A DNA stretch of 64,000 bases, from NCBI GenBank assembly GCA_034002925.1, contig JAVEZP010000001.1, forward strand, positions 66,523 to 130,522, written 5' to 3'. The translations under genes and the position numbers were made by a program. Source of the DNA: Patescibacteria group bacterium. Lineage in GTDB: Bacteria > Patescibacteriota > Patescibacteriia > Patescibacteriales > UBA12465. The number at the start of each line of letters is the position of its first letter. The first letter of the stretch is position 1. The notes under the pieces are model-generated. The model was given only the letters and a program-made list of their open reading frames with translations, was not told the DNA's origin and searched no databases. Positions 4,784 through 58,999 of the stretch are shown here, piece by piece.

Positions 4784-7700
4784 TTATTGAACATTTAGCA
4801 CAATGTAAGTTGGCACTGATTTAAAGCTTTCGTTGCCACTGGCATCTAAAGCCGTTAAAGCAAAATAGTTAGCACCAGCAGGAAATTGCCTTAAATCCAA
4901 TTCTAATGATGTAGCCTGATTGTCCGAATCAAAAGATTGTCCATATTGACCAGCATTAACGCCATGATACAAACGATAGAATAAAGTGTCATCATTGTTA
5001 GCCTGCCAAGTAAATCTCAGTCTCTGTCCATTTACAATTAAAGCGCTTAAATTTTGAGGAATAGTAGGAGCTTGACTATCGCTAATTATTACCGTTTTTT
5101 CGTTAGATAAAGCGCTTTCTACTTGATTAATAGAAATAGCTGAAACTTTTACTTTATAATTAGTATTATTATTTAAACCAGTAATAACTTTTTGACAAGA
5201 ATAGTTCTGTCCTGCGCTTGGACTTAATGGTGTGCAAGCTGGAGTGACGACATCATTATATTCAAAAGACGCAGTTGGTTTGACATCAATAAAATTCCAG
5301 GTACCACTATTTTCAGGTGCATAATATATACGATATTTACCCAATTGATTGGGATCAGCGTTATAAATCAAGCTCGCATCGCCATACCATTCAATTCTAG
5401 CACTATTACCATCAGCCAAATCAATAGCAGCTGTGATAGCACCGACACTTGGCGCCGCTTCTTTAAAGAAATAGGATTCTTTTAATACATTCCAAACACA
5501 GAAACCATCTCCTATACCATCACTATTACGATCAGGGCCACAACTAGCTCCTAAAGTAGAGCAAGTACTTTGCCCTTCACTACAAACCAGCGATTCATTT
5601 GCACCTAAAATTAAACCGGGATCAATCATGGCTGGTAAATCATCCGCTAAACCATCAACACCGGCATCACGACAATAATAGAACTTATAATTATAATTAG
5701 CACAATTACCAGTCGCTCCCTCGCAGGTATCATACCAAGGAGACCAATTTAAAGTACCAGAATTCACGGCTGGCCACGGATTTTGACAAATAAAGACAAA
5801 GAGAGGGACCTCTGTTTGCACGCCATCACCATCAGTATAAGCATTACAACAATTATTTAAACAATTTGGCTCAGCGCAGACACAAGTAGGACTACTATTA
5901 CAAGAATTACCACTAAAACGATCCATATTAATAGCTGTCGTCATCATCGTAGAATCATCTACTACGTTTTGGTTAGCCACTACAAAGGCTTGATGATCAG
6001 CTAAATTAGCAGGATCAGCTAAAAAGGCAACTCCATTATTCATTAAATCCCAATCCCAATCCCAATAATATCCGGAGGTGGGAGTTAATAATTGATTATC
6101 TGCACTATAAGCACGTGCATTAAATAATTTATCTTGATCGCTAACACTGTCAAAACTAGAATCATTAACATCATCATCATTTTCATTAATATCATCATTA
6201 GTGCTTTGGAAGAGATATGAATTTGGAGCAACACTAACATACTCTACACTACAAACACCACTATTTGTTCCTTGATCAGATAAAGTTGCAAAACTAGAAA
6301 TATAAGAATTATGAAAACTCAAATTATTGAAAGTAATATTTTCTCCTTCAACATATAAACCATTATTTAAATCTAAATAACCCTGGCCATTCATACCTAC
6401 CATCCATTGACTAAGAACGCCCACATCACTATTTAAAGTTTCATCACCCTTGACCACTAAATAATACTTAGTGCCTGCGCTTAACATTTTTTTAGGTTTA
6501 AACTCAGCAGTAGTGCCAACACCATCGTGCTGAATAGAAACAGACCCAGGAACGGCACAATAAAGTTTGGTATTAGAAGGCAGAGCATGAGCTAAAGCAG
6601 AGCTAGAAAAAGTATTCTTACGGAAAACTGAATTCACAACAGCTAACACTCTATTAATCGTGCGTTTGAACCAGTTATTAGCTTGAGAGCTATCTAAACT
6701 AGCAACAAATGTGCCGCTAGGACAAACTCCTGTGCCATAGTCTTTTTCTTCTAATAAAATAATATTGTTCATCAAACTAGCAACATCCATACGTTGATCA
6801 AAAGGAATAGATATAGCAGCGTTGCGACAAACATTATCTGCGCCATGGGCAGGCACTAAATTATCAGTCATGATATTAGGACGAGCACGACAACAAGTAC
6901 CAGAATCGCAACCCACATTAACCGCATCACCACAATCTAAATCTTCACTACAACCACAACATAAACCACGGTTTTCTCCAGAACAAGGAGTCTGATTAGG
7001 TTGACAAACTAAATCGCCGCTACCTAAACCAGCGCAAGATTCTGGATTACTGACTTGACAGCAACATGTACCACAATCTCCTGGTATGCCACCTGCTCCG
7101 GCTTCATTTAAACAAGCAAAAGGTGAAGAACAGAAAGAAGTATTACAAGTATCAATCGCTGTTAAATCACGACAATCTTGACCAGCTCCGCTAGGGCTAG
7201 AATTTGCACAAGCATAAACACAAGCTGAAATAGTATTATAATCACCCACCATAGAAGGGGTCTGATTACATTGAGTTTCATTTGGAGCCGCCTGACAATT
7301 ATAATAAGCGCAATAACCATCAATTGGACTAATGCTATCACCGCCGATACAAGTACCATCACTATAATTATAACAACAGTCGGCAGCCATAGAACAGGAA
7401 CTATAATCACCATCATGTTGACTACAAAAACTTACACCTGGATTAATTTCACAATTAGCATCACAAGTACTAATATCTTTAAATAATCCAATTTTTAAAG
7501 GATTGTCAGCCGCACATAAACTAGGATCACCATTTTCATCCTGACAATTATAATAAGCGCAATAACCAAAATCTGGACTTGAAGGGTCTGAACTAATATC
7601 TTCACCGCTACCACCTACACACACATCATCTGTAATCGTATCAGTGCCTTTTGAATCTAGACAACAAACTTGACTATGATCAAGACAAGACTCTCTAGAA

Positions 7701-10645
7701 AGACTGCTACAATCTGTACAAACACCCGTTGGAACAGAGGTATCACAATATTTACCAGAACTAATAGCACAATTACAAGCCTGATCAGAAGCCGCTACAT
7801 CAAAACCACCGCCACTAGCAGGAATAGCACAGCCTGAGCACTGACCTAATCCAGAATTATCTTCACTAGTGTCACTACCACAAGTACCAGAACAAACTAA
7901 TGGAGCACAGCAGTCTCGTGCATCTTGACCAATTTCACAACAACAATCACAACGAGAACTTTCTTCTGACATGCAAATATTATTTTGACAACTAGCACCG
8001 CTAGGACAAAGATTGGCACTAGCACAAACTCCTTGAGTGTCATTGTTCATTTCGCTTTCAAATACATCCATATTAGCAATACAATTTAGTCCATCATCAC
8101 ATAAAGAACAGCTAGATTCGGTAGCGCTAGTACTGCTAACACATCGATTGTTTGATAGTCGCGTCCAGCCACTAGGACAAGAAGTAGGAACTTTAATCTC
8201 CCAATGACTTTGATTATTGTATTCAGAAAATACTTTACAAGTTTGAGGAGCGCTAAAAGCTACACCATTTAAATCATAATTTAAAATTGAATCTAAAGAA
8301 CAAGTATTATTATTTAATACGCACACATCACGTTCACTATCATAGGTACAAGCCTGAGGATTACCAGCACAAGCCGCTACGCTCTCACAACTTGCATCAC
8401 AAGTACCTACGTTTTGCAAACCACCTGAGAAAGGTGAACATAAGCCAGCCGAATTAGGACAAAAAGCACCAACCTGACAAGCGCCTAAAGCTTGAGCCAT
8501 GCCTTCACAGCTATCATAAGGAGTGCTAGTGCTCACACCGCCAAAGCCAGTTGCAAAATCCCATTCAAAAATAGAATTAGGAATAGTAATATAACATTCC
8601 GCTAAAGAAGCCACGCATTGATTTTGTTTATAAGTACCAGCTGGACAGCAAATATCCGCTCCACACTCATTATCAGATTGACAAATGCCTACTTCAAAAT
8701 TGACCACATTGCCCCATTCTCCATTTTTGACCACCCTCACTGGTCCACTGCTAGCTCCAACAGGAACTGATGAATCTATTTTCTGAGCTGATCCATCACT
8801 GACAATAGTTTCTGTATTGTTTTTATTAGGAGTAAAGACTAAGAGAGCGCTGCCATTAATCTCACCAAAATATTCTCCCCACACACTTACTGGCGATGAT
8901 ACTGGCCCGCGAGAAGGAGAAATACGACAAATACTGGTTTTTAAAGATGCTTCCGTATCCACTTGAAATACATTGGGGTTAGCATTTTGAGAATTAATTT
9001 CTCCAGTAGTTAATTCAACCTTGATAGGATAATAACCATTATCTAAAGCAGCTGGTACTTTCACAATAATTTGACGATCTTGCCAAACAGAATCAGAGCA
9101 GACAGCTGGGAATTCATATTCTGCTTCTACTTCACCAAAAAAGACACGTGAAAAACCACGAGCACCACCAAAGCCACTGCCATAAATTGTCACATATTGA
9201 CCAGCTCTACCAACGCTTGGCGAGAAATAACTAATATATGGACCAGCATTAGGATCTACTTCCTTGTCAAAAGTAACATAATTACTTTTTTCTTGATTGC
9301 CATTAATAGTAGCTAACACGAAACTACTTGTTTTTCCTTGGCGCACATTCGGCACAGTAGTCACCCCATCAAGACCAGCTGGATCAATAAAGATAGAATC
9401 CAAACCCCTCACATTACTTTGATAATTACCAAAATAAGCTTCAGCTGAATATAAATTAAAACCTTGATAATTAACCTGTTGGCTAAGGGCGCCAACATTA
9501 GGATTCATTAAACATAAACCTGGTCTAACAATATCATTAACTAAAAAATCCGGTAAAATAGGGCCATTATCATCATTGCTAGTATCAGTATTATTATCAA
9601 CAGTGACTACGCTTAAAGCTCCGCTAATAGCACCACTTGGAACAGCTACAATAATCTGATTATTTGTCCAAGAATTAATACAATTAGGATTAATATTCAC
9701 CGGCTCTACTCCTGTTGTATTATTAGCAAATAATACTTTACTGTTTTGAGGATCATAATTCCCAAAATTAGTACCACTGATAGTAATAAAATTATTAACA
9801 GCACCGTTAGGAATTTCCGTATTACAAGTAGTTACACAATCATCATTATTTAAACAACTCTTATTCTCATCTTCTTCACAAAAACCACCCATAGGACTAA
9901 TCCCTGTAATCACTGGTGGTCCATAACAAGTACAGGTCTCTGTGCTACAACTTAAATATTCAGCACATAGATTATCATCAGCGCTACAAGTCTGACCACT
10001 AGGATCCGCATTACAAGCATCTCCTAAATTGCCTTTAGGCACACATTCGCAAGAGCCTGTATTACAATAACTATCTTCGGCGCACATTTGATCAGCTGCC
10101 TGACAACCAGCCAAAGGACTGCTATCACAATACTGAGGTCCAGTTCCGCCCCCACAATCACTACCTAAACAAGGACCCCAAGAACCTTCAGTACAAGTCA
10201 TAGAACCACCACAACCGCACGACAAAACTTGTCCAGTGGTACAAGTCGAACCTGAGCCGCCTCCACTACCAGTCGCACTAATTAAACGATTTAAAATAAA
10301 AGTAGCAATACCCCAAGCTGATAAAATAATTAAAAGACCAATAATACCATTTTTTAAAATCTTTTTAGCTTGTTCAATTTTTTCTTCTGCTCCGTTAGAA
10401 GTCATCCAAATAAAACCACCCCAAATAATTAAGCCTAAAGCTATCACGCCTAAAAGCAACATAGTGATATTAATGATACGAGCCACTACTGCCCGAGGAT
10501 CTTCAGCGCTAAGAGCAATATTTTCATCAATCACACTAAGTCCAGGATCAAGCTGAGCCTGAGCAGTATAAGCCAGAGAAATGCCAATCAATAACAACAA
10601 AAATATTAAAACTGAACGCTTTATTTTAATGTTAAAATTAAACAC
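4784..10645 (-). CDS. Giant (1953 aa) Cys/Ser/Thr/Asn-rich surface protein with an N-terminal pilin-like two-TM module (VirB2/TrbC-like topology) and a C-terminal FN3-like domain
   Basis: Starts at a GTG (ORF-track start). Signal peptide, then IINITMLLLGVIALGLIIWGGFIWMTSNGAEEKIEQAKKILKNGIIGLLIILSAWGIATFILNRL (two TM helices around a charged loop), then a Gly/Ser linker and ~1800 aa of extracellular sequence. The extracellular part has many CxxC and Cys clusters, a duplicated SP(D/I)(F/D)GYCAYYNCQ motif and an FN3-like C-terminal end. Its N-terminal module is ~70% identical to that of the next gene. Confidence 0.8.
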   Translation of the reverse strand: MFNFNIKIKRSVLIFLLLLIGISLAYTAQAQLDPGLSVIDENIALSAEDPRAVVARIINITMLLLGVIALGLIIWGGFIWMTSNGAEEKIEQAKKILKNGIIGLLIILSAWGIATFILNRLISATGSGGGSGSTCTTGQVLSCGCGGSMTCTEGSWGPCLGSDCGGGTGPQYCDSSPLAGCQAADQMCAEDSYCNTGSCECVPKGNLGDACNADPSGQTCSADDNLCAEYLSCSTETCTCYGPPVITGISPMGGFCEEDENKSCLNNDDCVTTCNTEIPNGAVNNFITISGTNFGNYDPQNSKVLFANNTTGVEPVNINPNCINSWTNNQIIVAVPSGAISGALSVVTVDNNTDTSNDDNGPILPDFLVNDIVRPGLCLMNPNVGALSQQVNYQGFNLYSAEAYFGNYQSNVRGLDSIFIDPAGLDGVTTVPNVRQGKTSSFVLATINGNQEKSNYVTFDKEVDPNAGPYISYFSPSVGRAGQYVTIYGSGFGGARGFSRVFFGEVEAEYEFPAVCSDSVWQDRQIIVKVPAALDNGYYPIKVELTTGEINSQNANPNVFQVDTEASLKTSICRISPSRGPVSSPVSVWGEYFGEINGSALLVFTPNKNNTETIVSDGSAQKIDSSVPVGASSGPVRVVKNGEWGNVVNFEVGICQSDNECGADICCPAGTYKQNQCVASLAECYITIPNSIFEWDFATGFGGVSTSTPYDSCEGMAQALGACQVGAFCPNSAGLCSPFSGGLQNVGTCDASCESVAACAGNPQACTYDSERDVCVLNNNTCSLDSILNYDLNGVAFSAPQTCKVFSEYNNQSHWEIKVPTSCPSGWTRLSNNRCVSSTSATESSCSLCDDGLNCIANMDVFESEMNNDTQGVCASANLCPSGASCQNNICMSEESSRCDCCCEIGQDARDCCAPLVCSGTCGSDTSEDNSGLGQCSGCAIPASGGGFDVAASDQACNCAISSGKYCDTSVPTGVCTDCSSLSRESCLDHSQVCCLDSKGTDTITDDVCVGGSGEDISSDPSSPDFGYCAYYNCQDENGDPSLCAADNPLKIGLFKDISTCDANCEINPGVSFCSQHDGDYSSCSMAADCCYNYSDGTCIGGDSISPIDGYCAYYNCQAAPNETQCNQTPSMVGDYNTISACVYACANSSPSGAGQDCRDLTAIDTCNTSFCSSPFACLNEAGAGGIPGDCGTCCCQVSNPESCAGLGSGDLVCQPNQTPCSGENRGLCCGCSEDLDCGDAVNVGCDSGTCCRARPNIMTDNLVPAHGADNVCRNAAISIPFDQRMDVASLMNNIILLEEKDYGTGVCPSGTFVASLDSSQANNWFKRTINRVLAVVNSVFRKNTFSSSALAHALPSNTKLYCAVPGSVSIQHDGVGTTAEFKPKKMLSAGTKYYLVVKGDETLNSDVGVLSQWMVGMNGQGYLDLNNGLYVEGENITFNNLSFHNSYISSFATLSDQGTNSGVCSVEYVSVAPNSYLFQSTNDDINENDDDVNDSSFDSVSDQDKLFNARAYSADNQLLTPTSGYYWDWDWDLMNNGVAFLADPANLADHQAFVVANQNVVDDSTMMTTAINMDRFSGNSCNSSPTCVCAEPNCLNNCCNAYTDGDGVQTEVPLFVFICQNPWPAVNSGTLNWSPWYDTCEGATGNCANYNYKFYYCRDAGVDGLADDLPAMIDPGLILGANESLVCSEGQSTCSTLGASCGPDRNSDGIGDGFCVWNVLKESYFFKEAAPSVGAITAAIDLADGNSARIEWYGDASLIYNADPNQLGKYRIYYAPENSGTWNFIDVKPTASFEYNDVVTPACTPLSPSAGQNYSCQKVITGLNNNTNYKVKVSAISINQVESALSNEKTVIISDSQAPTIPQNLSALIVNGQRLRFTWQANNDDTLFYRLYHGVNAGQYGQSFDSDNQATSLELDLRQFPAGANYFALTALDASGNESFKSVPTYIVLNVQ

Positions 10646-10727: not shown

Positions 10728-13403
10728 TTAAGGGCAATTACCATCTAAGCCAAGTAAGGCAGTGGGCACACCATTACAACAAGAAGGGTTATTAGCATCG
10801 GCAGCACAATCTAATCCAGCACTAGGTTTAAAACAATTTTGATAAATATCTTTAACGCCAGAACCTAATTGAGTATAATAAGTAACAGATTCGGCTAAAT
10901 TAGTATGCTGCACAAAAACCGAAGTAGTATCTGGTTCACCATCAAGCGGATTAACATCTTTATTCTCTGCTCTTACCCAATAACCTAAAGGCTGATTTGA
11001 TTTGCTAAACAGATTAATCAAGCGATGTTCAAATTGATCTTGGCCGTTATCAATCACGACGCTGCCTGTACGCAAACTATCATTCATCATCAAGGTGTTA
11101 AAATTTATTTGAACTGGCAATAATGTGTCAGCATCAGTAATTCCTAAATCAGGTTTTATAAAAGTAATAACCGGTGGCTCCGTCATCATCTCATCACTAA
11201 TGTGAAAAGTCCAAACATAATTATCTCTTTCGTTAAGCAGTGGATTGTTCTCATTATAAAATTCTAAAGGGCCCTCAGCGAAACTATTACGATTACCATC
11301 GAAGGAATTAGTAGCAGCATCTACTACACCATTTAAATTATTAAAGTCAGCTACCGGATAATTATTTTGATTTTCATCTTGACATACTTGGAAAGAATTG
11401 GATAATCCACAATAACTAAAAGGCGCAAATTGACTACAATCATTATTTGTTTGACACGAATGCAAATCAGCCGCTCTTAAACGCACAGCTAGGTGACTAT
11501 TAGCTGGTAAACAATAAATAGTGTCACCACAAGCATTTTGTCCACAAGCAACATCTGACCTAAATTCAACTGTACGGTACATATTAGATACTGTAAAATC
11601 ACCCGATAAATAATCACCCACACAAACAGAGTTGTCACAGTTATAAGACAAACAATCACTATCTTGTGCACAGCTTGCGTTAGAAGCTAAAGCCGATGCG
11701 GAAGCATTAACTACTTTTATATTTTGACTAACTTCATCAGCACTCCCGGCTATTAACAAAGGATTCACAGCTTCATTAAAATTTAATTGAATAACTGTAT
11801 TCATTGGCCGATCTTGACGATCTTTAGTTTCATTATTTTTTAACAAATCTTGACCACCAGCAAAAGGAGTAATAGCCAAAGTATTAAGATTATTACTAGT
11901 TAAATAAATATTATTACCAGCTGCTCCCGCAACCTTAGCACTTAGATTAACCGTGCCCGCTTCTTTTTCAACATTAATATCTGGATGACCACTAATACTG
12001 GTATAAATAGCAGTCGCTACAATACTAGGAGAACAATTTTGTGGATCGATCACAATATTATTAGCACCTGCATTTTCAGAAAAATTATAAACTTCAGTGC
12101 CAATAGTTAAATTATCAGCTAAGGATACTGGTTGAATTAACACATCCCAAGCACTCCCAGCCTCATGACCTTCCACAAATAAATCAATAAAACCTGGGAA
12201 CGATACGCTATTTCCTTGCCAAGCAGCTGCTCCTAATAATTGACCCTCAGCAAATAATTGTGCCTGACTATTATCCATAATACTTACCACCGATACATTA
12301 GCAAAAGATTGATAATTAGAATCAACGGTAGCAGTTGCATTAAAAGAACCGGCACTAGGGGAAACACTTACCACGCTAGCTGCTTGATAAGTTTGCGGAC
12401 AAGCCTGAACTACAATACTAGCTGTAGCTGGTACTGCAGCACTTATTTGATTAAAAATATCTTTTTCATTATCTGGTAAAGGAAAAATGCCACCCTTTCT
12501 AACCTGAGGAGGCGTTAAATCTAATTGATTGCTAACTTCAAATCCCCAGGTGAAGAAATCATTATTACAAGTTTTAAAAATTGATTCTCCTTCATCAGTT
12601 AACAAGCCATTACTTAAATAAACACTATAATCAGTATTACCATCGCTTTTACCTAATAATTCATTAGGTTTAATAATAAAAGTACGTCTGTCTGAAGATG
12701 CAGAGACACTGGCATTATTTAAATTCAGACTATCGACAGGACAAGAACTGGAATCACAATCATCACCAAAGTCATCACGGAAAATACGAATATTTACCGG
12801 ATTAATTAAACTACACTCACCACCATCACAAGCACAAGCATCGCCAGCTGCATTTTGACAAACACTCTCAAGATCAAGAGCTGTTTTAAAACTAATAATA
12901 ATTGAAGAATTACGAGCTACTTCTTTTTGTCCAGGCTCAGGATATACTCGTTCTATAGTACAAGCACCTAAAGCGCCAGTGCCCTGTAAAGAATTCACAT
13001 TAGCATTATTACCACCATTAAAACCACCGGTTCCGGTCGCTTGCATTAAACGATTTAAAACAAAAGTAACAACACCCCAAGCAGACAAAATAATAATTAA
13101 ACCAATAATAGCGTTACGTAGAATTTTTTTAGCTTGCTCAATTTTATCCTCACTGCCGCCACTAGTCATCCAAATAAAGCCAGAATATATAATCAAAGCT
13201 ACTGCTATTGCCCCTAAAAACAATAAAGCAACATTGATAATTCTGGCAATAATTACTCGCGGATCAGTTGGACTTAAAGCAATCACAGAATCAATTTCAC
13301 TCGTGCCCACATCTAAGCCTTGAGCGAAAACAACTGTTGCCAATGAGATACCTGCCAAAAATACTAGCGAAAAGAGAAAAAAAGATAATAATTTGCGTGA
13401 CAT
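10728..13403 (-). CDS. Large (891 aa) Cys-rich surface protein, paralog of the preceding gene through a shared N-terminal pilin-like two-TM module
   Basis: ATG start. N-terminus MSRKLLSFFLFSLVFLAGISLATVVFAQG...ARIINVALLFLGAIAVALIIYSGFIWMTSGGSEDKIEQAKKILRNAIIGLIIILSAWGVVTFVLNRLMQATG aligns with the 1953-aa protein, then diverges into Cys-rich domains. It is the first gene of the minus-strand block. Confidence 0.8.
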   Translation of the reverse strand: MSRKLLSFFLFSLVFLAGISLATVVFAQGLDVGTSEIDSVIALSPTDPRVIIARIINVALLFLGAIAVALIIYSGFIWMTSGGSEDKIEQAKKILRNAIIGLIIILSAWGVVTFVLNRLMQATGTGGFNGGNNANVNSLQGTGALGACTIERVYPEPGQKEVARNSSIIISFKTALDLESVCQNAAGDACACDGGECSLINPVNIRIFRDDFGDDCDSSSCPVDSLNLNNASVSASSDRRTFIIKPNELLGKSDGNTDYSVYLSNGLLTDEGESIFKTCNNDFFTWGFEVSNQLDLTPPQVRKGGIFPLPDNEKDIFNQISAAVPATASIVVQACPQTYQAASVVSVSPSAGSFNATATVDSNYQSFANVSVVSIMDNSQAQLFAEGQLLGAAAWQGNSVSFPGFIDLFVEGHEAGSAWDVLIQPVSLADNLTIGTEVYNFSENAGANNIVIDPQNCSPSIVATAIYTSISGHPDINVEKEAGTVNLSAKVAGAAGNNIYLTSNNLNTLAITPFAGGQDLLKNNETKDRQDRPMNTVIQLNFNEAVNPLLIAGSADEVSQNIKVVNASASALASNASCAQDSDCLSYNCDNSVCVGDYLSGDFTVSNMYRTVEFRSDVACGQNACGDTIYCLPANSHLAVRLRAADLHSCQTNNDCSQFAPFSYCGLSNSFQVCQDENQNNYPVADFNNLNGVVDAATNSFDGNRNSFAEGPLEFYNENNPLLNERDNYVWTFHISDEMMTEPPVITFIKPDLGITDADTLLPVQINFNTLMMNDSLRTGSVVIDNGQDQFEHRLINLFSKSNQPLGYWVRAENKDVNPLDGEPDTTSVFVQHTNLAESVTYYTQLGSGVKDIYQNCFKPSAGLDCAADANNPSCCNGVPTALLGLDGNCP

Positions 13404-35029: not shown

Positions 35030-38000
35030 TTATTTTAATTCTTTTGTCACATTCGCCAATTTAGATTCATATTGACTTTGTAATTTTTCAATCATTTCTA
35101 AGCTCTGCTCAGGACTCGCTACCGCCGTCGTGCCATCACTCATATCAACAATAGTGACCAATTGTTTTTCATAATCAATGTCAGCTATAAATACAGACTC
35201 GGGCTTCATGCTAGCTGCTAATTCTGCTTCTTTAGCTAAGCTATTTATATCATCAAACACATATAATTTATTACTAATATATTTTAAATCACTAGCACTC
35301 TGCAGATTGTTAGCTTCATAGGTTTTTTGATTAATTACCATTCTATCTAAAAAGCCATCACCATCTTTATCAAAAAATGATTTTTCGCCACCATTATCTG
35401 ACAAAACAGAAAATCCTTTTTCGGAGGTCATAAAGCGCATATCTCCTTTAAAGTCCATTTGATAAAATCTCGCCCCTCTCTCAATTCTTTCTACTTTATT
35501 ATCAAATTTTTTCACAAAGTCAGTAATTTTTGTTAAATAATTTTTACTTTGTTCATTTTTGTTACCTATTATTTCGCTAGATACTGAAACATCAGAAATA
35601 GCATCCTGAGCATCTACTTCCGGCTCTATTATCGGCTCCTGTAAAACAAAAATATTTTCCCCTTCTAAGCCTGTACTATTTAAGGTAAAATCTAAAACTT
35701 CATTATTTTCTTTTAAGACCACTTGATAGCCATCATCTATTACATTTATTTGAGCAATATTATTAAGATCAATATTTGCTAAATTAATTTTATCTACCGT
35801 GCCTTTAGTTAATTTATCTGCAATCAAAAAATTATCTTCTAATTTCCAATTTAAATTCTTAAAAGCATTATTTTCATACAGGCCTTTAAACCAAGGATAG
35901 CTATTAATATCAGCTTGAACTTTAGCATCTATGGTTGGCGCGCTAGCATTAATATGTTCTGCAGTAATATTATCTTGAGCCTCTTTTGCAATAAATTGTT
36001 TATTTTCTAAATTTGTATCTAATGACTCAGTATTTAAACCATTGTCTGTTATAAATTCGCTATTAGACTCTAAATTGAATTTCTCCACTAAGAAATTTTG
36101 AACATCAATTACCGGATTTCCTTTTTCATCAGCTAAAAAACCAGAAATTTCTTCTCCAGCGTCATTAAAAAAGAAATATTGCTCATTGATAGGATCAATA
36201 AATATATCCTCTCCCCCAATCACTGTTTTAACAATATTGTCTCCTACGTAAGTTATTTCTTCTGCCTCTAAAGAAAATTTATCTCCAACCATGGCTAACC
36301 ATTTGTTAAGTGCTACTGGTGAAGCCTCAAGTGATTTAGCATTAGGAATGATAATATCATTAACTACTTGCTCAGAACTAGGACTCGGTTGAAGCACTTC
36401 TTCTGTGAGCACTGAATTTGGAATTGATTCAATTTCAGGTAAAGGATCAAGACGCTCAGTAGTAAGCGCCACCTTTGGCTCTAAACCAGTACCTTGCTCC
36501 ACAGTAACTACAAACGAATCATTAACTTTTTCTAAGACCACTCGATTACCTTCAAATACCATATCTGTTAATTCACCACTATTAGCTAAAGCTTTATTTG
36601 TTTGAATTTCTGCCCATTTGTTCAAAGCATCTTCGTTACCTTCATAACCTAAACTTTCGGCATTACGTAAAAATATTTCTTTAGTTGATCGCCACACTGA
36701 ATCATGTTGTCCTGATTTTAAACCTTCATTACTAATTACATCAGACCAAGAAGACTTTTCAATACTGGGCACTACATTATCTTCATCAAGTGTTGTCACG
36801 GGCTCAATTAACTCAGTACTAATGGTATCATTTATTATTTCTTGAGCCTCCGTTAATTCTGCTTCTGAACCAGATACAACACTCTCGGACACCACATTGT
36901 TCATAGCAACATCTTCTAGACCATCTTGAAATATATGAGAAGATGCGCCATAAGCGGCTGAACCTATGCTGGAAAAAATAGCCCCAGTAAAAGCTCCTTT
37001 TATCATCTGATTAACAATAAATTTTTTTCTTTTTTGATCTAATTTTTTATCTGCTTTATCTTCTAGATGATTTAACAATCTCATTGCTCTGGCTTGAGTC
37101 TCAATTAATGCAACCGAAGAACTATTTTCTAAGTCTGCATCCTCAGAAAAAACATTAAAACCCAAAAGACTCATTTGAGCCTGATTAAGCGTGTTGTAGA
37201 AAGCGATCATATTCTGGCTTCTATCGCTTATAACACCAAAATTAATTAAGCCATCATCAGCTAATCTCTTACTAAAATCTAAACGACGTTGTAAGACGGC
37301 TGATATCTTATTATGCTCTTCCCGTGTAGCAGTGTTATTTAATTGAGCTAAAAGATCTTCTAATTTACGAGTTAGATCTTCAGATTTTAAAGTCTTTCGT
37401 TCTACATTTTTTTGCTCTATTTTTTGCCATTGTAAATCTAATTCTTTAAATCTTTTTTGAGCAGATTCATATAACAACAAATCGTCTGGATGAGCAATAG
37501 TTGACCAATCTTCAAAGCTCATTCGCCCTGTTTTATTTTTAAATTGTTCATTATCAATCTCGCTATATAAAGGTAAAAAAGATTGCAAATCTTTCAAAGC
37601 AGCTTGCCTTTGAGTTAATAGTGGATGAGAAGCTAAATTTTTTTTATCAACAAATTTATCTTTTTCTTTTAATTGTTTATTGGCTCTTTCTTTTCCTCGC
37701 CAAGCACCAATCATAGCAGCAGTTAAAGGAATAGCCGCTGCTCCAGCCGCCACACCAAAAGTATTAATTGCTGCCATAGATAGACCCTGACGACCAGCAA
37801 AGCCACCAGCTAAAAATTTCCAATTATCTTTTGAGGCAACATACTTACCAGCCGCTTTAAAAATACTTTTAAAAATAGATTCTTTCTGTAATGTCTCGCT
37901 CCACTCTCGCTCTAAATTAGGATCAGCAGCAAAAAACTGCATCATATTTAATTTAGCATCAGCATTATATAAATATAAATCAATTTCTTTAGCATGCAAC

Positions 38001-39151
38001 TTATGACTATCTAAAAGAGTGCGCACGGCTATTTGTTTAGATTTATATTCTTCAAAAATTGTAGAATCTTTTGCATTTTTGGCCACAGCTCTATCTGATA
38101 ATATATTATGCTTAGGCACAGCTGCTAAATTCATTGCAGACGTATTAAAATCAACTAATACTTGCTTTTCTGCTTCATTTAATTGTAAATAAGATTCTAA
38201 ACCAGGCTGTAAAGCTAAGAAATCAATTTGTCTTTCCCCTTGTTCATTGATTTTTTCATCAGGAATAAAAGTTTGAGCCCAATTAACCATCTGTATAAGG
38301 TTAGCGCCATGTTTTTCTAAGCCTCCCTCAGCCTGAGCTAACAATGCTGTTCGATTTAAAGCTTTAGAGTTAAAGCTATTAGCAATGCCTTGTTTTAAAC
38401 GACCAAAAAAATCTTTATTCTGCATTTTCTGATTTTTTTGCATCATGACTTCATTTTTTGCACTTTCTGCAGCCATTGCCTGTAAACTTTTAGCAATCAT
38501 TAATTGAGCACTCTCTGACAAATCAACTAAACCCGGAATTGTCTCTAAGTCTGCTGCGCTTAAAGAAAGCTTTTCAAAGCTAGTTATTACTTGCTCTGAA
38601 TATAATTCTATTTTTTGTTTTTCTTCTAAGTTTTCGTTATCAATATTTTGTGATTTAATATCATCTATTACTGATGATTGATCAGTATTATCTTCACTTT
38701 TAAGCGCCTGCTCTACATTATTGCTAGTATCTTGCATGACTTTATCTCTATTCACATCAACTGCAGCTGCCTCTTTATTAAATTCTTCATTGATATTCAC
38801 GCCATTTAATTTAGCTGCTTGTTCTTCTTGAGCCATATCTTGAGCTACTATTTCATTCATTTGAGCTAACTTCATCTCAGCAAGATTTTTGGCTTCTTCG
38901 GGCTTACTCTCTAAAGACCTCGACACACCAGTTAATTTCTCTAGTAATTTAACATTAAAAGTAATATTAAACTTAGCTTTAAATTCTTGACGCAAACTTT
39001 GTTCCTCTTTGCCTTGCGCTTCTTTAATTCTTTTTTCCCATTCTAAAATTTCATCTAACTGTAATTTTAAAGACTCAAGATGTGCTTTAGAGCCTGATCT
39101 TATCGATTTATCTTTTTGTAAAGCAGGCGCTAACTGTTCTGTTGATTTCAT
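35030..39151 (-). CDS. Giant (1373 aa) coiled-coil-rich hypothetical protein with a central hydrophobic hairpin
   Basis: No signal peptide. Long Glu/Lys/Gln-rich predicted coiled-coil regions. One ~40-aa hydrophobic segment (FLAGGFAGRQGLSMAAINTFGVAAGAAAIPLTAAMIGAW). No recognisable catalytic motif. Confidence 0.55.
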   Translation of the reverse strand: MKSTEQLAPALQKDKSIRSGSKAHLESLKLQLDEILEWEKRIKEAQGKEEQSLRQEFKAKFNITFNVKLLEKLTGVSRSLESKPEEAKNLAEMKLAQMNEIVAQDMAQEEQAAKLNGVNINEEFNKEAAAVDVNRDKVMQDTSNNVEQALKSEDNTDQSSVIDDIKSQNIDNENLEEKQKIELYSEQVITSFEKLSLSAADLETIPGLVDLSESAQLMIAKSLQAMAAESAKNEVMMQKNQKMQNKDFFGRLKQGIANSFNSKALNRTALLAQAEGGLEKHGANLIQMVNWAQTFIPDEKINEQGERQIDFLALQPGLESYLQLNEAEKQVLVDFNTSAMNLAAVPKHNILSDRAVAKNAKDSTIFEEYKSKQIAVRTLLDSHKLHAKEIDLYLYNADAKLNMMQFFAADPNLEREWSETLQKESIFKSIFKAAGKYVASKDNWKFLAGGFAGRQGLSMAAINTFGVAAGAAAIPLTAAMIGAWRGKERANKQLKEKDKFVDKKNLASHPLLTQRQAALKDLQSFLPLYSEIDNEQFKNKTGRMSFEDWSTIAHPDDLLLYESAQKRFKELDLQWQKIEQKNVERKTLKSEDLTRKLEDLLAQLNNTATREEHNKISAVLQRRLDFSKRLADDGLINFGVISDRSQNMIAFYNTLNQAQMSLLGFNVFSEDADLENSSSVALIETQARAMRLLNHLEDKADKKLDQKRKKFIVNQMIKGAFTGAIFSSIGSAAYGASSHIFQDGLEDVAMNNVVSESVVSGSEAELTEAQEIINDTISTELIEPVTTLDEDNVVPSIEKSSWSDVISNEGLKSGQHDSVWRSTKEIFLRNAESLGYEGNEDALNKWAEIQTNKALANSGELTDMVFEGNRVVLEKVNDSFVVTVEQGTGLEPKVALTTERLDPLPEIESIPNSVLTEEVLQPSPSSEQVVNDIIIPNAKSLEASPVALNKWLAMVGDKFSLEAEEITYVGDNIVKTVIGGEDIFIDPINEQYFFFNDAGEEISGFLADEKGNPVIDVQNFLVEKFNLESNSEFITDNGLNTESLDTNLENKQFIAKEAQDNITAEHINASAPTIDAKVQADINSYPWFKGLYENNAFKNLNWKLEDNFLIADKLTKGTVDKINLANIDLNNIAQINVIDDGYQVVLKENNEVLDFTLNSTGLEGENIFVLQEPIIEPEVDAQDAISDVSVSSEIIGNKNEQSKNYLTKITDFVKKFDNKVERIERGARFYQMDFKGDMRFMTSEKGFSVLSDNGGEKSFFDKDGDGFLDRMVINQKTYEANNLQSASDLKYISNKLYVFDDINSLAKEAELAASMKPESVFIADIDYEKQLVTIVDMSDGTTAVASPEQSLEMIEKLQSQYESKLANVTKELK

Positions 39152-39674: not shown

Positions 39675-41157
<1,483 letters not shown>

Positions 41158-41338: not shown

Positions 41339-41349
41339 TTGAAATAACA

Positions 41350-41377
41350 AAAAGAGAGCTTTAGCTCTCTTTTTTAT
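41350..41377. terminator. Bidirectional terminator (trpS 3' end / 16S region)
   Basis: gagagc-ttta-gctctc hairpin flanked by A- and T-runs. Confidence 0.6.
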
Positions 41378-42411: not shown

Positions 42412-43638
42412 TTAATCTTTAAAATCAATTTGAGCATAATTTTGACTAACAAAATCCACATCTTTATCGCCCCGACCAGATAAATTCACTACTAAAATTT
42501 TGTCTTTTGCTAAATTAGGACTGATTTTATAGGCATAAGCTAGGGCGTGAGCACTTTCAAGAGCAGGAATAATACCTTCGTAACGAGCAGTCAAAGCAAA
42601 AGCTTCAAGTGCTTCACTATCACTAATAGCCTCATATCTAATTCTTCCTATTTCTTTTAAAAAAGCATGAATTGGTCCTACCCCTGGATAATCAAGACCT
42701 GAAGCAATCGAATAAACGGGAGAAGCTTGATTTTCTTCATCTTGAAGCAGATAGGTCTTCATACCATGAATAATGCCAGAACGACCTAAACTTAAAGTAG
42801 CAGCATGCTGACCAAATTCTAAGCTTTTACCGGCTGGTTCCACTCCTACTAACTCTAGCTCTAATTCATCTAAAAAATCATGGAATAAACCAATAGCATT
42901 AGAACCACCCCCAACACAGGCAATCAACATGTCTACTTTTTTTATATTGTGTTCCCGTAACTGACGTCTTAATTCTCTGCTAATAACACTTTGGAAATAT
43001 GTAACCATGGCAGGATATGGATGGGGACCAACCACAGAACCAATCGCAAAAAAAGCAGATTTATATTCTTGAAGATAAGCGGCAAAGGCACTATCAACTG
43101 CCTCTTTTAATGATTTTCCACCTTGTTTTACAATTATTACTTTTGCTCCTAGTAATCTCATTTTTTTCACATTCTCTGCCTGCTTATTAGCATCTATCTC
43201 ACCCATATAGATATCGCACTCTAAACCAGTGACAGCTGCGGCCGTAGCCAAGGCTACACCATGTTGACCGGCTCCAGTTTCAGCCATTAACTTTTTTTTG
43301 CCCAAACGCTTAGCCAACAAGGCCTCTCCTAAACAATGATTAATTTTATGAGCTCCAGTGTGATTTAAATCTTCACGCTTAAAATATATTTGCGCTCCCC
43401 CTAACTTCTCGCTCATGTTTTTTGCATGATATAGCGGTGATGGTCGACCAACAAAATCTTGAAGCAAAGCTTGATATTCTTGAATAAAGTTTTCATCCGT
43501 CTTAATTTTCGTAAAAGCTTGTTCTATTTCTTGAAAAGTCTCTTTAAGAAATTCGGGCAAAAAAGCGCCACCAAACTCACCATAATATCCTTCTTTATTA
43601 GGAAGATTTTTATAATTTGTATTATTAAAAGTATTCAT
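42412..43638 (-). CDS. trpB: Tryptophan synthase beta chain (PLP-dependent), no trpA neighbour
   Basis: HTGAHKINHCLGEALLAKRLGKKKLMAETGAGQHGVALATAAAVTGLECDIYMG (PLP-lysine region), GGGSNAIG, YPGVGPIHAFL. 408 aa. Confidence 0.9.
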   Translation of the reverse strand: MNTFNNTNYKNLPNKEGYYGEFGGAFLPEFLKETFQEIEQAFTKIKTDENFIQEYQALLQDFVGRPSPLYHAKNMSEKLGGAQIYFKREDLNHTGAHKINHCLGEALLAKRLGKKKLMAETGAGQHGVALATAAAVTGLECDIYMGEIDANKQAENVKKMRLLGAKVIIVKQGGKSLKEAVDSAFAAYLQEYKSAFFAIGSVVGPHPYPAMVTYFQSVISRELRRQLREHNIKKVDMLIACVGGGSNAIGLFHDFLDELELELVGVEPAGKSLEFGQHAATLSLGRSGIIHGMKTYLLQDEENQASPVYSIASGLDYPGVGPIHAFLKEIGRIRYEAISDSEALEAFALTARYEGIIPALESAHALAYAYKISPNLAKDKILVVNLSGRGDKDVDFVSQNYAQIDFKD

Positions 43639-43734
43639 ATATTAATTATTAAATTTATTAAATAGTATGATTAGAAATTAAAAAAACACCAATATTCAGA
43701 AGCTCGATTGTAGAAAAAATAATATTTCATAGAA

Positions 43735-43990
43735 AATAAAAAAATCCCGTCTTTTCTGCCTAATCTAAAATTAAGCAGAAAGGACGGGATTTCCCGCGGT
43801 GCCACCTTTCTTGCTTGCTAAAATAGCAAGCCTCTTTAATGTCTCCGCTTTATAGCGACAACATCTATCCTTTGATTACGGAGGAAGCCGAGCAACCACT
43901 AGCGCAGTCGCCATCCTTGACTCAAGAGTCAACATCTATGCCCAACCCCGAATAAATTCGGGACATAGACCTGGATTTTAAAAATTATTA
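43735..43990 (-). promoter_or_regulatory. T-box riboswitch leader (tRNA-sensing; Trp-type) upstream of trpB-trpS
   Basis: The minus strand reads ...AAAGGUGGCACCGCGGG (T-box consensus AGGGUGGNACCGCG, N=C as expected for a G73 discriminator). A terminator hairpin cccgucc-(loop)-ggacggg plus a U-run follows at 43735-43790. Upstream stem region contains UGG triplets. Confidence 0.75.
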
Positions 43991-44036
43991 AAGTTATAAT
44001 GACAAGGTATCATAATAAAAATTAAAAGTCAAAACT

Positions 44037-58878: not shown

Positions 58879-58951
58879 GCGCCTATAGCTCAGGGGTTAG
58901 AGCACCGCTCTTATAAAGCGGGGGTCGATGGTTCAATTCCATCTAGGCGCA
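58879..58951 (+). tRNA. tRNA with anticodon UAU (AUA-decoding tRNA-Ile type)
   Basis: Acceptor gcgccta/taggcgc. D arm gctc-aggggtta-gagc. Anticodon stem ccgct/agcgg with loop cuUAUaa. T arm gatgg-ttcaatt-ccatc. Discriminator A. Confidence 0.75.
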
Positions 58952-58999
58952 CAAATACCGACTATTTAATTGCCGGCTTTTAATTTTATTAATTTCCTG

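Follow-up and report, generated by a model that had tools for sequence, protein, structure and literature searches.

Two groups of described T-box riboswitches come close to the element reported here. The class I tryptophan T-boxes of Firmicutes, such as those of trpS and the rtpA/at operon of Bacillus subtilis and of other Gram-positive trp operons, control trpS and tryptophan biosynthesis through antiterminator and terminator structures, with a UGG specifier, a UGGN sequence whose variable base is C or U, a 7-nt bulge, a Stem III purine string and a G-U pair. The class II ileS T-boxes of Actinobacteria (Nocardia farcinica and Mycobacterium tuberculosis) act at the level of translation and have a truncated or ultrashort Stem I without the elbow platform, together with Stem II and a Stem IIA/B pseudoknot adjoining the specifier. 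In the present study, a 64-kb stretch of DNA from a Patescibacteria group bacterium (64,000 nt of contig JAVEZP010000001.1, hereafter the window) was analysed, and the leader of a trpB-trpS gene pair on its minus strand is very probably a tryptophan-specific, transcription-attenuating T-box riboswitch of atypical architecture. This leader has all of the above features in common with the Firmicutes elements, but its Stem I is only about 37 nt long, without the AG bulge/distal-loop platform and without a kink-turn (K-turn), an extra hairpin (Px) is inserted, and the host is of the Patescibacteria type. From the ileS T-boxes, with which it shares a short Stem I as well as Stem II and Stem IIA/B, it differs in three respects: an intrinsic terminator is found instead of a Shine-Dalgarno sequestrator, the specifier is for Trp and not Ile, and Stem II is a 6-bp hairpin with a decaloop, where the ileS elements have a long helix that contains an internal S-turn. 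In this architecture a truncated Stem I, Stem II and Stem IIA/B are joined to a transcription terminator, and in the subgroup of the window a three-way junction takes the place of the K-turn. In the literature searched, no paper was found that joins T-boxes or tryptophan synthase with candidate-phyla names, save for one giving trpA and trpB frequencies (PMC8672522). An earlier note, made from the sequence alone, had described a Trp T-box in front of a trpB-trpS pair; the T-box, the tryptophan specifier and the operon have stood up to the analysis, whereas recognition by the Rfam model and the claimed rarity of such elements have not, and a conserved upstream open reading frame (uORF) between the T-box and trpB had been missed.

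First, the T-box core, its bulge and the competition between antiterminator and terminator were all found, in agreement with the proposed T-box and transcription terminator (Table 1). The sequence GGTGGNACCNCG is found a single time in the window, where 0.31 occurrences would be expected by chance, and folding of the 256-nt leader gave a z-score of -6.7 relative to shuffled sequences. In an alignment of 12 non-identical leaders, on which the 13-helix structure taken from the window was imposed, helices A1 and A2 of the antiterminator are almost invariant and 100% paired, and the G-U pair closing A2 at the base of the helix was seen in all 12 sequences. The 5' arm of the terminator overlaps the 3' half of the antiterminator, so that the two structures are mutually exclusive, and the terminator is conserved with covariation in the relatives. 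The reported hallmarks of the discriminator domain, i.e. RRRxG-Stem III-AA, a 7-nt bulge and a G-U pair closing A2 (PMC7583486), are all present in the window leader. Even close relatives differ in whether the variable base of UGGN is C or U, both of which are able to pair with G73. This discriminator base appears to be present in three tRNA-Trp(CCA) genes of related loci, two of them reading clearly and one having ambiguous gene boundaries. A C/U pattern of this kind is also recorded in TBDB, where U stands opposite G73 in 46% of Trp T-boxes (PMC7778990). The suggested match between UGGC and a G73 discriminator is supported by both the C/U alternation in relatives and the tRNA-Trp genes of related loci. 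A sequestrator-type (class II) expression platform was not found, as no Shine-Dalgarno sequence precedes the uORF or trpB and a U7 terminator is present instead. A tRNA gene lies just upstream of the leader in relatives, and it is tRNA-Lys, tRNA-Ile or tRNA-Thr, not tRNA-Trp.

Second, the helices of the leader are supported by covariation, for which anchored pair counts were used. In the 12 leaders, 96.0% of the cells are standard pairs, compared with 44-49% when the partners are slid by 1-3 columns; compensatory changes on both sides occur in 35 of the 68 pairs, and the observed values were reached by 0 of 500 shuffles. Every varying helix, namely P0, both parts of Stem I, Stem II, IIB, Px (helix 9; 11 pairs, 5 compensatory, 98.5% of cells paired) and Stem III, contains compensatory changes. 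In the pseudoknot, which Rfam aligns to CGguuauuucCGUUA, the loop UCCU (43885..43882) pairs with AGGA (43871..43868). All IIB pairs are standard, including a change of UCCU/AGGA to UCCC/GGGA in L087, and IIA is almost invariant. The wider leader family was collected from a metagenome collection with the pattern TGCGYTAGTG-N4-14-CGGNNTCCNCCGTAA, which covers only the Stem II loop and Stem IIA/B and leaves Stem I and the T-box unconstrained. At least 120 stretches matched, giving at least 133 leaders together with the window and its relatives, and family counts here and below refer to the matches listed. In 107 distinct leaders of this set, 99.4% of the Stem II arm pairs are standard, compared with 71% when partners are shuffled; each position shows between four and seven types of pair, of which three or four are common.

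Third, the specifier is conserved and the genes behind it are mostly tryptophan genes. The sequence GUUGGGC is invariant in the 12-sequence alignment, and UGG stands at the same Stem I position in about 125 of the 133 leaders listed; in the non-redundant set, 71 of 76 leaders carry it by regular expression and three more by eye. Downstream genes, which were assigned with NCBIfam and tblastn, include trpB1-trpS, trpB2 followed by trpS or tyrS, trpS alone, trpE-trpG, trpC-trpB-trpA, a trpD-like gene with a BtpA/SgcQ-family gene, and a Trp-dehydrogenase-like (ScyB) gene with a class I/II aminotransferase; the last of these operons could possibly serve indolepyruvate salvage. These results agree with the specifier assignment that the earlier note had drawn from UGG triplets in the upstream stem. 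The single case of covariation between specifier and gene among the leaders listed fixes the triplet frame: L097, L149, L170, L178 and L179 read G-U-UCG-G (Ser) in the specifier frame and precede a phosphoglycerate dehydrogenase (PGDH)/SerA-like gene, which in L149 is followed by trpC and trpB (TrpB1). An extra U on the 5' strand of Stem I keeps the UCG frame in L097, L149 and L179, where this strand is readable; the corresponding stretch is missing from L170, and L178 has a different upstream sequence. In the sampled loci, the T-box appears to be devoted to Trp, the exception being a rare Ser variant.

Several observations weigh against this assignment. The Rfam T-box model RF00230, by which the earlier note had expected the region to be recognised, scores the leader at 52.4 bits, below the gathering score of 93, although with E-values of 1.2e-10 in a local scan and 1.4e-8 over the whole window. 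None of 17 related loci reached the gathering score either, and in an E-value scan of relatives six of ten loci scored 41.7-68.5 bits and the rest went undetected. The upper part of Stem I consists of 6 bp with a 4-nt loop and has no AG bulge or distal platform; the base of Stem I is a three-way junction, AUCC-AG-Stem I-G-hp2-GGAU, with no K-turn (GA motif); and in the decaloop UGCGYUAGUG, AGUG is the sole resemblance to the AGUA/GAA S-turn, so that a canonical S-turn is not evident. In addition, a subgroup of seven loci (L091, L094, L111, L142, L158, L162 and L186) has lost the T-box sequence and antiterminator, while keeping Stem I with UGG, Stem II, IIA/B, Px and the uORF; just a GGCCCCCUUGGGGUC-U6 terminator is left before the uORF. 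The low Rfam score and this subgroup are what might be expected if the leader were a decayed, non-functional T-box remnant or a chance match, with the operon constitutive or otherwise controlled. Such a remnant is hardly tenable given that the helices are kept by compensatory changes, that relatives with 64-92% TrpB identity show no variation in the bulge, the G-U sensor pair or the terminator, and that the 106 T-box cores found in related loci among the matches listed are all joined to the same 5' domain. Moreover, RF00230 is the sole significant cis-regulatory match at the locus and in the window, and its alignment fits the 3' two-thirds of the leader (the Stem II region, IIA/B, Stem III and the T-box/antiterminator), with 86 Stem I model positions shrinking to 12. 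The sub-threshold score is therefore attributed to the truncation of Stem I rather than to the absence of a T-box.

A further objection concerns the specifier itself. With so little variation in it, UGG might in principle serve as a fixed structural element, and the leader would then respond to a different tRNA or lack any codon-specific response to a tRNA. Its near-invariance, the thin covariation between specifier and gene, and the presence of tyrS and unrelated genes after some UGG leaders (a YbdK-like ligase with an AstE-like gene, or a zinc-ribbon gene with tyrS) would fit this possibility. Nevertheless, we regard it as very unlikely, since Trp genes make up most of the regulated genes, the UCG variant carries its frame-keeping compensating insertion before a SerA-like gene, and the triplet occupies the canonical specifier position on the 3' side of an internal loop, with a purine next to it and then a helix. 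Other operons behind UGG T-boxes include genes for a TrpR/YerC-like protein, for an EamA transporter, and for a carboxylate-amine ligase of YbdK-like type accompanied by an AstE/AspA-like gene; together with the trpD-like and ScyB-like operons named above, these were seen in L101, L107, L113, L127, L128, L130, L160, L114, L139 and others. A bona fide TyrRS-family gene (TIGR00234, 363 bits) stands behind UGG T-boxes in L141, L154, L168, L100, L184, L172 and L203; in two loci it follows TrpB2, where TrpS stands elsewhere. This arrangement could reflect cross-regulation, or else the enzyme could be TyrRS-like but changed in its specificity.

The assignment as a Trp T-box extends to a family with three forms, and the distal Stem I platform is absent from all of them among the matches listed. 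The first form is compact, with a consensus K-turn AUC-UUU-GA...U-GA-GAU (UUUGA...UGAG) at the base of Stem I. The second, to which the window belongs, has the hp2 and P0 three-way junction without the GA motif, and the third is made up of a small number of ultrashort leaders whose specifier lies in a terminal loop (L120, L131 and L134). A review leaves open whether Stem II-containing T-boxes work without a K-turn (PMC7583486), and a family with and without this motif might offer natural test cases. The leaders lie mostly on metagenome contigs whose TrpB relatives bear the name Patescibacteria. The view in the earlier note that T-boxes are unusual in minimal genomes does not hold for this class, which is widespread in related metagenome contigs and sub-threshold in Rfam; riboswitch censuses thus under-count this clade, which is invisible at the Rfam gathering threshold, in reduced genomes of the Patescibacteria type. 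No other T-box type was found in about 1 Mb of flanking sequence of the related loci listed, and no T-boxes were found near hisS, pheST (pheS, pheT) or valS of the window.

Herein, we propose a mechanism for the leader that follows the described T-boxes. Uncharged tRNA-Trp (anticodon CCA, G73) would pair its anticodon with the UGG specifier in the bulge of the truncated Stem I, and the Stem II hairpin next to it and the IIA/B pseudoknot would presumably strengthen this binding, much as they do in those actinobacterial T-boxes that have a short Stem I. UGGC of the T-box bulge would then be paired by the tRNA through its free NCCA at the 3' end, and the weak antiterminator would thereby be stabilised against the much stronger terminator, allowing read-through. 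Charged tRNA-Trp would be unable to form this pairing, and transcription would end at the U7 tract. The read-through transcript would carry first the 19-codon uORF and then trpB and trpS, so that the predicted output is more tryptophanyl-tRNA synthetase (TrpRS) and more TrpB1 enzyme.

Table 1. Elements of the trpB-trpS leader and operon, with their positions in the window
Feature	Positions	Strand	Remarks
Promoter	44004..44032	-	-35 TTGACT 44032..44027; 17-nt spacer containing TG; -10 TACCTT 44009..44004
Leader, about 265 nt		-	Follows the promoter
Three-way junction domain	43913..43976	-	P0, truncated Stem I and inserted hp2
P0 helix AUCC/GGAU	43976..43973 with 43916..43913	-	4/4 pairs compensatory; 98% of cells paired
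Truncated Stem I	43934..43970	-	Lower helix 5/7 compensatory, 100% paired; upper helix 100% paired
Specifier UGG (Trp)	43942..43944	-	In the 3' bulge (5-6 nt) G-U-UGG-G of Stem I, 43946..43941
hp2, inserted hairpin	43917..43932	-	Sequence variable; about 80% of cells paired
Stem II	43891..43912	-	6-bp helix with invariant decaloop UGCGYUAGUG; helix 6, 100% paired, 6/9 compensatory
Stem IIA/B pseudoknot	43868..43890	-	IIA CGG/CCG 43890..43879; includes CCGUAA (F-box)
Px, clade-specific extra hairpin	43838..43865	-	Core GUUGUC...GGAGAC; insertion relative to the Rfam model
Stem III with purine flanks	43813..43837	-	AAGAG-Stem III-AA; helix 10, 5/6 pairs compensatory
T-box and antiterminator	43778..43810	-	Helix A1, 7-nt bulge, helix A2; -11.9 kcal/mol
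T-box sequence AAAGGUGGCACCGCGGG, core AAAGGTGGCACCGCGGG	43793..43809	-	Inside the antiterminator
T-box bulge UGGCACC	43798..43804	-	7 nt between A1 and A2; UGGC at 43804..43801
Intrinsic terminator	43733..43789	-	Hairpin 43789..43745 (-27.8 kcal/mol), then UUUUUUUAUUUU, with U7
uORF, 19 codons, MKYYFFYNRASEYWCFFNF then stop	43671..43730	-	Between the terminator and trpB; Trp codon 43691..43689
trpB, tryptophan synthase beta chain, 408 aa	42412..43638	-	TrpB1 type; TIGR00263, PF00291
trpS, tryptophan--tRNA ligase, 329 aa	41389..42378	-	TIGR00233 (361 bits), PF00579
Operon terminator after trpS	41349..41374	-	11-bp stem, then U tract; single one

The operon is compact, with trpB and trpS separated by 33 nt. 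Transcription probably starts near 43997, and the promoter pattern TTGAC(T/A)-17 nt-TGnTAnnnT is kept in the upstream regions of relatives L083-L092. As to the type of the enzyme, the trpB product scores 558.6 bits with TIGR00263 (cutoff 392.45) and 173.4 bits with the TrpB2 model TIGR01415 (cutoff 518.85); because the first cutoff is passed and the second is not, the protein is assigned to TrpB1, which settles a classification that the earlier note had left to be made. Metagenome and genome assemblies yielded TrpB homologues with 64-99% identity, and the closest named ones are annotated as 'Patescibacteria group bacterium'. In all nine protein look-ups, which covered 14 contigs, trpS comes after trpB, and two kinds of synteny context were seen; the pairing of trpB with trpS without an adjacent trpA, as first noticed in the window, holds throughout the examined loci of this type. 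A 16S rRNA gene (39676-41155, plus strand) converges on trpS and is unlinked, with no 23S rRNA gene after it on its strand; this trpS/16S arrangement recurs in L083, L089, L090, L092, L109 and L171.

The reduction of tryptophan synthesis to the beta reaction, in an organism that would be unable to produce Trp de novo, has counterparts in the indole salvage of genital Chlamydia trachomatis (trpRBA) and in the proposed 'indole rescue' by Thermotoga TrpB2. Chlamydia, however, keeps a catalytically impaired TrpA and the repressors TrpR and YtgR, whereas the window has no adjacent trpA, a TrpB1 enzyme and an RNA predicted to sense tRNA charging. Since trpB appears to be regulated by tRNA-Trp charging and co-transcribed with the gene for TrpRS, TrpB is likely to supply Trp, and without TrpA, indole would be its sole substrate route. 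We therefore consider it moderately probable that TrpB1 makes Trp from scavenged indole and serine, as the earlier note had suggested, in which case the trpB-trpS operon would mark, in compact form, a genome that depends on indole from outside. The opposing view is that TrpB does not stand alone but has trpA, and perhaps the full pathway, elsewhere in the genome, so that the T-box co-regulates the last biosynthetic step with TrpRS. TrpB1 enzymes normally work with TrpA; fuller operons, trpE-trpG and trpC-trpB-trpA, stand behind the same kind of T-box in some related contigs (L110 and L166); and a groundwater survey reported trpA in 15% and trpB in 18% of one Patescibacteria genome set (PMC8672522), which counts against indole salvage. 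On the other hand, no trpA, trpC, trpD, trpE, trpF or trpG was found in the window, where trpB is the only such gene, and neither trpA nor any other of these genes was found within 6 kb on either side of any trpB1-trpS locus examined (about 14 contigs), in which trpS occupies the usual place of trpA. A search with the TrpA of a related contig gave the same indication: none of its best 120 relatives was tied to the long trpB-trpS contigs (959, 831 and 853 kb), although this is a weak test. On this evidence, the opposing view seems rather unlikely.

In addition to the T-box, a second conserved element was found between its terminator and trpB. A short ORF is present at this place in all relatives, and 20 unique nucleotide versions share M-x6-N-[R/K]-x4-W, with N at codon 8, R/K at codon 9 and W at codon 14, followed by 0-19 variable codons; three TrpB2-linked variants have W at codon 18-19. 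The pN/pS ratio (nonsynonymous to synonymous polymorphism) is 0.43 in frame, compared with 1.26 and 0.82 in the other frames, third-position entropy is the highest, and Arg9 is written by six different codons. The low in-frame ratio and the third-position entropy indicate that the uORF is under purifying selection and translated. Its stop codon lies 16-80 nt from trpB, and it has no Shine-Dalgarno sequence, as is the case for 39 of the 41 ORFs of the window. In the related loci, the uORF is restricted to positions upstream of TrpB1 or TrpB2 genes and was not found before trpS-only, trpD-like or other operons; the core N-[R/K]-x4-W-R directly precedes TrpB2 genes, including cases in which small zinc-ribbon genes lie between these and the T-box. 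As a negative control, 80 trpB loci from GTDB representative genomes with at most 63% TrpB identity, almost all from other phyla, were searched, and neither the T-box core nor the uORF was matched in any of them. The TrpB-linked leader peptide is thus a new candidate cis-regulatory peptide, and it most likely represents a second, translation-linked control specific to TrpB genes.

Known leader peptides offer several comparisons. In the B. subtilis at operon (Chen and Yanofsky 2003/2004), as in the window, a T-box is followed in tandem by a short ORF with Trp codons before the regulated gene; this order of a Trp T-box, the leader peptide rtpLP and rtpA is cited in PMC11255114. However, rtpLP has three Trp codons and covers the rtpA Shine-Dalgarno sequence, whereas the window uORF has one Trp codon, a conserved core and no Shine-Dalgarno sequence. 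The Escherichia coli TrpL peptide likewise has W followed by R upstream of a Trp/indole gene, but the window has neither tandem Trp codons nor the 1:2, 2:3 and 3:4 hairpins, and with a single W its uORF falls outside the definition of a trpL-type attenuator (tandem Trp codons with alternative hairpins). TnaC has W at a fixed spacing too, although the distance from W to the stop is variable here and fixed in TnaC (W12-P24-stop). A trpL-type attenuator does occur on the same gene pair in another locus: in L093 (5806-5935), annotated as Pacebacteria, trpB-trpS has no T-box and is preceded by a leader peptide, MQISFNWWTTSLWR with its stop codon, that contains WW, by alternative hairpins and by the terminator CCGCC-AAACA-GGCGG-U7, which fits the definition. 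Control of trpB-trpS by tRNA-Trp charging may therefore be a recurrent solution, and the occurrence of at least two unrelated attenuators on this pair suggests that obtaining enough Trp is a genuine constraint on these symbionts.

In view of the precedents in the B. subtilis at operon and L093, a tRNA-Trp-dependent translational checkpoint is the most economical reading of the uORF. One specific version is a hungry-codon attenuator, in which a ribosome stalled at the single UGG under scarcity of charged tRNA-Trp would mask a weak downstream terminator or Rho site and permit transcription of trpB, the peptide conservation being secondary. The Trp codon is invariant, a hairpin with a U tract begins 0-26 nt after it in 10 of the 20 versions, and both the WW leader peptide of L093 and rtpLP provide models, so that this version is quite possible, though short of an even chance. 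What speaks against it is that there is a single Trp codon, that N8, R/K9 and aromatic positions are held at fixed spacing under purifying selection, which such leaders do not need, and that the geometry has no obvious off state. A universal terminator after the Trp codon was also considered and rejected: no hairpin or terminator follows this codon in the window, and one is present in about half of the versions, so simple terminator masking was not taken as the main explanation. Conservation of a peptide at fixed spacing is more typical of arrest peptides. By analogy with TnaC or SpeFL, the uORF might encode a ligand-sensing ribosome arrest peptide for TrpB1 and TrpB2 genes, which we consider unlikely. 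If this were true, free Trp or indole would be sensed in the exit tunnel while the T-box senses tRNA-Trp charging, and two RNA- or ribosome-based sensors would be integrated in an organism with almost no transcription factors.

The remaining observations concern the background of the window, which has the appearance of a Patescibacteria (candidate phyla radiation) genome: its G+C content is 34.6%, its 16S rRNA gene has no 23S rRNA gene beside it, Shine-Dalgarno sequences are scarce, and giant ORFs carry few Pfam domains or none. A Shine-Dalgarno-like core lies within 20 nt of the start in 2 of its 41 ORFs, and starts are found in A/U-rich sequence; the 3' end of the 16S rRNA gene carries CCUCC despite this scarcity. 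A tRNA-Ile gene (58879-58952, plus strand) has the anticodon UAU, implying direct decoding of AUA, and a spurious sub-threshold 'Plastid-ycf2' Rfam match was obtained on the opposite strand of this locus. Three large proteins are encoded on the minus strand: an ORF of 1953 aa (4784-10645), an ORF of 1373 aa without a Pfam domain (35030-39151), and an 891-aa protein (10728-13403) that carries a Big_5 domain and resembles a type IV secretion pilin at its N-terminus. Giant ORFs and pilin-like/Big_5 proteins of this kind are typical of the surface proteins of episymbionts.

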